A stretch of DNA of 16,712 nucleotides from Escherichia coli (GTDB taxonomy: Bacteria; Pseudomonadota; Gammaproteobacteria; Enterobacterales; Enterobacteriaceae): assembly GCF_003334315.1 (NCBI RefSeq), contig NZ_QOWR01000074.1; one strand, 5' to 3'. This document shows, piece after piece, positions 6,228 through 6,304 of this stretch. Each line of letters opens with the position of its first letter. Position 1 is the first letter of the stretch. The notes under the pieces are model-generated. The model was not told where the DNA came from and did no database searches. It saw nothing but the letters and a program-made list of their open reading frames with translations. A program made the translations under genes and the position numbers.

Positions 6228-6253
6228 GCCGGATGCGGCGTGAACGCCTATCC
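6228..6253. repeat. Truncated REP (repetitive extragenic palindromic) element
   Basis: gccggatgcggcgtgaacgcctatcc matches the 5' two-thirds of the REP units at 11329-11362 and 11442-11475, but lacks the 3' inverted arm. Confidence 0.45.
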
Positions 6254-6282
6254 AAAAGAAAAAGGCCAGCGCGAGGCTGGCC
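6252..6282 (-). terminator. Intrinsic terminator of metK
   Basis: Inverted repeat ggccagc (6264-6270) / gctggcc (6276-6282). On the minus strand it is followed directly by a T-run (plus-strand aaaagaaaaa at 6254-6263). It lies about 22 bp after the metK stop. Confidence 0.7.
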
Positions 6283-6304
6283 TTTGAACGCAGGTGAAGA
6301 AAGA

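Follow-up and report, generated by a model that had tools for sequence, protein, structure and literature searches.

We analyzed a 16,712-nucleotide stretch of E. coli DNA (the window), which is K-12-like and lies in reverse orientation. According to the list of open reading frames it carries galP (4487-5893, minus strand), metK (minus strand) and speA (8242-10230, plus strand), and the 427 bp spacer between metK and galP is 100% identical to that of K-12, BW25113 and BL21-type strains. Inside this spacer, just downstream of metK in the metK sense, lies the remnant of a REP element. The order on the minus strand is metK stop codon, hairpin, U-tract and REP remnant, so that the remnant follows the terminator, as the original prediction had proposed.

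Nineteen nucleotides separate the metK stop codon from the start of the hairpin, for which the terminator scan (minus strand, 6285-6261) gave a 10-pair stem with six G-C pairs and a 5-nt loop, followed by TTCTTTT. The full run, UUUUUCUUUU, spans 6254-6263 and its first three U are the final three bases of the stem; hairpin and U-tract fold together at -16.5 kcal/mol. Lying downstream of a stop codon, this G+C-rich hairpin with its U-rich tract has what defines an intrinsic terminator. Both parts are near-invariant among the sampled E. coli alleles, and a stem of the GGCCAGC/GCTGGCC type recurs, with substitutions, after metK across many Enterobacteriaceae genera. The Term-seq supplement of PMC7815308 contains no metK 3' end at 30879xx. 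We also considered the hairpin as a terminator of plus-strand (antisense) transcription and discarded it: on that strand the stem is trailed only by TTTGAAC and the scan reported no plus-strand terminator. The coordinates of the features are collected in Table 1.

Table 1. Features of the metK-galP region, in window coordinates.
Feature	Position	Strand	Basis and remarks
metK CDS (methionine adenosyltransferase)	6305..7459	-	Stop codon TAA at 6307-6305; annotated as metK in identical genomes; MG1655 metK is 3086706-3087860, mapping verified
metK intrinsic terminator hairpin, AAAGGCCAGC-CUCGC-GCUGGCCUUU	6261..6285	-	Terminator scan
Distal terminator U-tract, UUCUUUU	6254..6260	-	Terminator scan; all Escherichia alleles diverge just past the tract
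Deletion junction	6253..6254	.	Alignments; 13 bp (ACCUCACCGCGGU, minus strand) missing relative to the +13 allele, 55 bp missing relative to the long E. coli allele
REP215, truncated y-type REP (GGAUAGGCGUUCACGCCGCAUCCGGCA)	6227..6253	-	Consensus search; curated REP list; sequence identity checked
Conserved right-hand flank of the former BIME (AAAAAAACCGCCCGCACAAUAACA)	6203..6226	-	Aligned in all Escherichia alleles; homology anchor
In-vitro Rho-utilisation (rut) peak	6114..6256	- (sense to metK and galP)	Table 15, supplement of bioRxiv 10.64898/2026.03.23.713779, from the Helicase-SELEX screen PMC9499579
Conserved motif UGAAACCGAUUACA (TGAAACCGATTACA), putative GalR/GalS operator half-palindrome	6147..6160	-	Resemblance only

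The plus strand at 6228-6253 reads GCCGGATGCGGCGTGAACGCCTATCC. It is the sole site in the 16.7-kb window that matches this 26-mer with up to three mismatches, and none of 200 dinucleotide-preserving shuffles produced such a match. The sequence corresponds to the first 26 bases of the y-REP consensus less one T, with 26 of 26 bases matching otherwise. The REP-like 26-mer that had been reported next to the metK terminator is hence real, and it is indeed truncated: with the full 34-nt y consensus and up to three mismatches, 6228-6253 was not matched and the REP at 11329-11362 was the only match in the window. A complete BIME of three REPs (y, inverted z1-like, y) occupies 11329-11475, between the convergent genes speB and loiP; the window has no other REPs of full length, and we used this BIME as a positive control within the same sequence when searching for REPs.

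REPs are defined as imperfect palindromes of 30-40 nt that carry a conserved GTAG on their 5' side, and a BIME-2 as a z2 and a y REP joined by a short linker (Ton-Hoang et al., 2012, PMC3333891). The element downstream of metK, known as REP215, has the core sequence of a y REP in that definition, and its bases line up one by one with those of the canonical y REP in a relative described below (locus L036). It keeps the inner stem, the loop, the non-complementary GC mismatch and the 3' arm, and has lost the GTAG, the 3-bp foot on the 5' side and one A of the AA bulge. Only 26-27 nt are left, where a REP with its whole foot would measure 30-40 nt; the three outer pairs (GCC/GGC) lack their 5' partner, and the place of the GTAG is taken by the terminator U-tract (UUUU followed directly by GGAUAGG). 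The fold is down to -11.2 kcal/mol, against -20.9 for the canonical y REP. Like other REPs it is extragenic and belongs to a multi-copy family, lying between metK and galP with three further REPs at 11329-11475; moreover, the REP/BIME portion of the L036 query matches a median of at least 39 places per E. coli genome, which identifies it as multi-copy REP DNA. There is one truncated REP and no partner for it in the metK-galP intergenic region of the window, hence no inverted doublet of the BIME-2 or REPIN kind. On its sequence, the most fitting name for the window copy is a truncated y-REP singlet left over from a BIME-2-like doublet. Since TnpA-REP binding needs both the GTAG and the stem mismatch (PMC3333891) and the GTAG is absent here, we predict that REP215 is not bound by TnpA-REP.

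The element itself has been catalogued before. In the supplement of bioRxiv 10.64898/2026.03.23.713779, a table gives REP215 as "tandem" at 3087938-3087913, metK / galP, and PMC10100675 also tabulates it beside metK. The minus strand of window 6227-6252 (GATAGGCGTTCACGCCGCATCCGGCA) has exactly the sequence of MG1655 3087913-3087938; REP215 of K-12 MG1655 and the window element are the same, without any sequence difference. The original prediction had placed the element at the correct site, with numbers one base off the curated ones (6227-6252). What our analysis adds is its status as a truncated singlet and the survival of its full BIME ancestor in other Escherichia and in rare E. coli. The RefSeq record of MG1655 has no repeat features, not even at the obvious three-REP BIME (window 11329-11475), so its silence on REP215 is uninformative. 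At gathering thresholds, Rfam gave no match anywhere in the window. A permissive scan returned sub-threshold noise and a weak match to naRNA4 / CssrE (RF02564) at 6194-6257 on the minus strand (17.9 bits against a gathering threshold of 59.5, E = 0.96); RF02564 derives from REP325, and the match therefore reflects only shared REP sequence.

For the relatives, we scanned one genome per species for the metK end among the matches listed and read the DNA downstream of it; E. fergusonii, E. marmotae, E. ruysiae and Shigella fall outside this set. Four other Escherichia lineages (L036, E. whittamii, Escherichia sp. MOD1-EC7003 and E. albertii) have, at this very position, a z2 REP that a short linker joins to a y REP in inverted orientation. 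In L036, which was deposited as E. coli SCPM-O-B-8794, a linker of 14 nt separates a z2-like inverted REP (UGCCUGAUCCACUACACUUAUCUGGCCUAC) from the canonical y REP GUAGGCCGGAUAAGGCGUUCACGCCGCAUCCGGCA (GTAGGCCGGATAAGGCGTTCACGCCGCATCCGGCA). The y REP of E. whittamii, two substitutions away from the canonical one (GUAGACUGGAU...), likewise follows an inverted z2 REP and a linker. The GTAG is intact in the y REPs of these two. In Escherichia sp. MOD1-EC7003 and E. albertii, an intact inverted z2 REP and the linker are followed by a y REP with decayed GTAG and foot (..AGAGG-UGGAUAA..). On either side of the doublet the flanks align in all Escherichia alleles, with the terminator on the left and CAUCCGGCAAAA..GCCGCCCGCAC..AUA.CA on the right (CATCCGGCAAAA..GCCGCCCGCAC), and their conservation establishes the positional homology of the site across Escherichia. 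A search of the metK 3' flank of relatives for an intact REP had been proposed as a check, and L036 supplies it with its canonical y REP; together with the near-intact copy of E. whittamii, these doublets at the homologous site bear out the suggestion of a degraded BIME. The long form of the relatives resembles a BIME-2 (PMC3333891) in its inverted z2, its linker of 14-20 nt and its y REP with a 5' GTAG, arranged tail to tail. It differs in number, as BIME-2 elements usually come in tandem multiples and the metK site holds a single unit; the window copy lacks the z2 partner, the linker and the GTAG.

Next, we compared E. coli strains by searching 5,426 complete genomes with a 96-nt query across the deletion junction, taking identity bands as a proxy for alleles. 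About 1,509 genomes (about 28%) matched at 95% identity or more and would carry the K-12-type allele of the window, about 3,825 (about 70%) matched at 80-90% identity, and 92 gave no match to the junction query. All sampled matches in the second group span 108-109 nt, not 96, and the alignment places 13 extra bases (ACCUCACCGCGGU in the metK sense) exactly between the U-tract and GGAUAGG; we refer to this as the +13 allele. Its flank can be very close to K-12, as in strain 95-3192 with 99% identity. A search with the L036 version of the sequence found seven genomes with 95% coverage at the metK locus and one with partial coverage, that is, about eight long alleles among the 5,426 complete genomes. 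The four that we read (MFDS1022581, 2017-02-2CC, EC42405 and R32_14_1F) contain z2, linker and GUAAG-UGGAUAAGGCG...CAUCCGGCA: the y copy is longer, keeps the GTA- of the GTAG (it reads GTAA) and has a decayed foot. In their flanks, the long-allele strains share 94-95% identity with K-12, which is within the E. coli range and like many +13 strains, as compared with 70-88% for other species.

Relative to the long E. coli allele, the +13 allele is short of a net 42 nt and K-12 of 55 nt; these 55 nt cover the inverted z2 REP, the linker and the y REP's outer arm. All deletions share the end of the U-tract as their left border, and the alignments are ambiguous as to how many separate deletion events lie between the long and the +13 form. 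We considered whether the 13-bp segment is the missing REP arm and rejected this, given that its sequence is not GGCCTAC and that its alignment with the long allele, at the linker and the decayed arm, is loose. The K-12 and +13 alleles have in common the single-A bulge GGATAGG and every long form has GGATAAGG (in RNA, GGAUAGG vs GGAUAAGG); from these sequences the single-A bulge is derived. Natural variants also break inner pairs of the stump's stem without compensation: GGCA..CGCC occurs in WCHEC, the same change is found in the aligned allele of MCJCHV-1, and Esc9 has GGCG..UGCC.

In R32_14_1F the metK 3' UTR (AAATAATCCTCCGACGCCTTCGTCTTCAAGG; positions 336-400 of its locus, L132) resembles that of E. 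albertii and not that of E. coli, while the downstream flank is E. coli-like, which suggests a recombination breakpoint at or near the terminator. Given this E. albertii-like 3' UTR, some of the long alleles may have reached E. coli from other species instead of having been kept from an ancestor. In other E. coli strains the metK-galP spacer has taken up three different insertion sequences. Strain 2017C-4173W12 has an IS200C within the T-tract of the terminator, beside the 13-bp scrap (L134, about 790-1500); strain 19KM1831 has an IS3-family element within the 13-bp scrap (L133, 459-876); and strain PEC240 has an IS1 next to the operator-like motif at about window 6158, some 95 bp from the REP remnant in the direction of galP (L005, 3266-3990). 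The IS200 transposase is a Y1 enzyme, of a family related to the REP transposase.

Outside Escherichia, the distance from the metK stop codon to a conserved GAAAsCGrTTACA motif upstream of galP is 69-125 nt and REP-free in most of the Enterobacteriaceae examined, with 105-125 nt in most genera, compared with 206-226 nt in the BIME-bearing Escherichia. We saw such REP-free spacers in many Citrobacter, Trabulsiella, Buttiauxella, Superficieibacter, Franconibacter, Siccibacter and Pseudocitrobacter. Citrobacter amalonaticus (L053), Enterobacter asburiae (L024) and Buttiauxella agrestis have their own, different REP types right after the metK terminator, and close relatives of some of them are without these. 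The site after the metK terminator is thus a recurrent landing place that has been occupied independently several times, and the Escherichia BIME is a single lineage-specific insertion. Further repeats were noticed at this site. Salmonella diarizonae (L095) has a REP-like palindrome, TGCTGATAAACGCAGCGCTATCAG, after the metK terminator that is absent in S. arizonae (L056). In the first 330 nt past the metK stop codon of B. agrestis (L043), the terminator hairpin and a species-specific REP doublet are tandemly duplicated with a period of about 190 bp, giving two terminator copies. In Edwardsiella hoshinae (L019), at least 10 tandem CGTCTAC heptamers (read as CCGTCTA) lie about 90-165 nt past the metK stop codon and run to the end of the contig.

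We consider it likely that REP215 is the inert stump of a BIME-2-type doublet (inverted z2, linker, y) that decayed by deletion, probably neutrally. This reading is built on the observed anatomy of the element, the positional homology of the site, the allele series with its frequencies and the loss of hairpin stability. Its insertion right behind the metK terminator would predate the divergence of the Escherichia species. Most E. coli would then have lost a net 42 bp by deletions that took out the z2 REP, the greater part of the linker, and the y REP's GTAG and foot but left the 13-bp scrap, and in the K-12-type lineage a further deletion of 13 bp would have set the stump flush against the U-tract. 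That the deletions all stop at the U-tract is consistent with selection to keep the terminator. The stump, lying beyond the termination point, would be transcribed only in read-through RNA, keeps a weak hairpin only and probably drifts neutrally. We infer the direction of change, deletion and not growth, by parsimony, with E. fergusonii and a core-genome tree not among the data. The suggestion that the BIME was once a part of the metK 3' end structure is right as far as the DNA neighborhood goes; it would probably not extend to the mature metK mRNA, which should end before the BIME, as the BIME lies after the terminator U-tract in every lineage. As to the agent of the deletions, we rejected excision by a RAYT, as the known TnpA-REP cleavage sites (TGCC/TGAT and GCC/TAC) differ from the deletion borders, one of which is the U-tract end and the others positions within linker and arm. 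Decay of this kind agrees with the description of REP singlets as defunct remnants of doublets or REPINs, made by deletion or decay (Bertels and Rainey, 2011, PMC3116915): like REP215, those singlets are single decayed REPs from an inverted doublet, more variable than canonical copies and presumably immobile. That model was drawn from genome-wide statistics in Pseudomonas fluorescens, whereas the metK locus displays doublet, stump plus 13 bp, and stump alone in living strains.

Two other accounts of the origin were weighed against decay by deletion. The short form could be ancestral, with the REPs built or inserted later, or a fragment that was truncated beforehand could have come in, for instance through gene conversion with another REP as the donor. 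The site is receptive, as the independent REPs or BIMEs of different types after the metK terminator of C. amalonaticus, E. asburiae and B. agrestis attest. Such a reversed polarity or set of independent events is nevertheless highly improbable, because every base of the stump is collinear with the 3' portion of the complete y REP in relatives, and the two have both flanks in common; the long form occurs in four non-coli Escherichia lineages and in rare E. coli, while the REP-free genera have a short spacer and no stump; a half REP without GTAG would be no substrate for the known transposase; and two pieces of the 13-bp scrap, ACCGC and GGT, can be aligned with the long form at its linker and decayed arm. 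A chance similarity of G+C-rich sequence to the REP consensus, for which nothing speaks other than the short length of 26 nt, has a practically negligible probability and is already refuted by the failure of all 200 shuffles at three mismatches, the exact match but for one deleted T, the homologous full REPs in relatives and the curation of the element as REP215.

Does the stump do anything? Probably not. REP215 lies after the terminator, its hairpin is about halved, variants in its stem go uncompensated, length variants of 13 and 55 nt coexist and the GTAG is gone, and it is for these reasons probably functionless. The contrast between a near-invariant terminator and U-tract and a variable stump fits selection acting on the terminator and drift in the stump, as judged from the sequences. 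Some facts count against the relic reading: the stump is present in essentially all short-allele E. coli, and its 26-nt core is still near the consensus, which could reflect some constraint; it also overlaps a strong in-vitro peak of Rho substrate.

The chief alternative involves Rho. A Helicase-SELEX peak has been recorded at MG1655 3087909-3088051, with and without NusG, with a log10 enrichment of 1.5-1.8 (bioRxiv 10.64898/2026.03.23.713779; PMC9499579). It begins in the U-tract of the metK terminator, extends 142 nt downstream and overlaps REP215 by about 25 nt. The sequence outside the REP has 32 C and 11 G, compared with 9 C and 8 G inside the REP; the C-rich, G-poor stretch lies mainly at about 6150-6244 on the minus strand, with a C/G ratio of about 3. 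It is thus the flank, and not the REP stump, that has the C-rich, G-poor composition of a Rho substrate. In the list of rut peaks the column for BCM-sensitive transcripts is empty for this one (bioRxiv 10.64898/2026.03.23.713779), and the only Rho region listed for metK is an internal one, at 3087603 (PMC7815308). From these data, Rho could plausibly provide back-up termination between metK and galP, and the stump is probably incidental to this.

A stronger version would have the stump work within this back-up zone: the read-through RNA would fold the hairpin and expose the C-rich tract, and Rho would stop the polymerase before the galP operator and promoter, with the hairpin serving to pause transcription or to hold up 3' exonucleases. 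We find this rather unlikely. It has in its favor the sense-strand Helicase-SELEX peak at 6256-6114, which overlaps REP215; the C/G ratio of about 3 over 6244-6150; the reading of rut peaks that overlap intrinsic terminators as back-up termination (PMC9499579); and REP325, which is a partly Rho-dependent attenuator and an mRNA stabiliser (bioRxiv 10.64898/2026.03.23.713779). However, the excess of C over G is almost wholly outside the REP, so that Rho binding needs no stump; no bicyclomycin-sensitive transcript is listed for the peak; and stem-breaking polymorphisms as well as length variants of 13 bp and 55 bp are tolerated in nature. The known cases also limit the comparison. REP325 / naRNA4 (RF02564), a 3' UTR attenuator and stabiliser, shares with REP215 the y-type hairpin sequence and a position between tandem genes, but it has 12 hairpins and no upstream intrinsic terminator, whereas REP215 is one half-hairpin behind a strong predicted terminator. 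The metK peak resembles the rut peaks on intrinsic terminators (Delaleau et al., 2022, PMC9499579) in its overlap with the terminator U-tract; it differs in being an in-vitro helicase substrate only, made up mainly of non-REP sequence.

It is quite improbable, though conceivable, that the loss of the BIME was itself not neutral. The deletions would have moved the C-rich Rho tract nearer to the terminator and so tuned a combined intrinsic and Rho insulator that shields the galP operator from read-through of the highly expressed metK, with the REP hairpin as pause or entry point. If this were true, the long, +13 and flush alleles would differ measurably in metK-galP read-through. As the inert stump of a decayed doublet, REP215 is an ordinary relic that matters little beyond tidy annotation. 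The locus is of modest use in another way, as it preserves stages of BIME decay in living strains (doublet with canonical y, doublet with decaying y, stump plus 13 bp, flush stump) with the terminator untouched throughout. It thereby offers a convenient natural allele series on whether a REP after an intrinsic terminator affects read-through or mRNA stability.

Finally, we looked at the galP side of the spacer. The motif at 6147-6160 is conserved upstream of galP in most of the Enterobacteriaceae examined; it starts the conserved galP upstream region and forms the right-hand limit of the variable spacer. Nearer to galP, at 5964-5979, lies the palindrome GTGTAATCGCTTACAC, symmetric at 14 of its 16 positions. 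Both sites look like operators of the GalR/GalS type. Beside this palindromic operator-like site, about 50 nt upstream of the galP start, there is a second terminator-like hairpin (GATGTGATTTGCTTCACATC, then TTTTTACG) at 5943-5962 on the minus strand, which could be a leader attenuator or a chance match.
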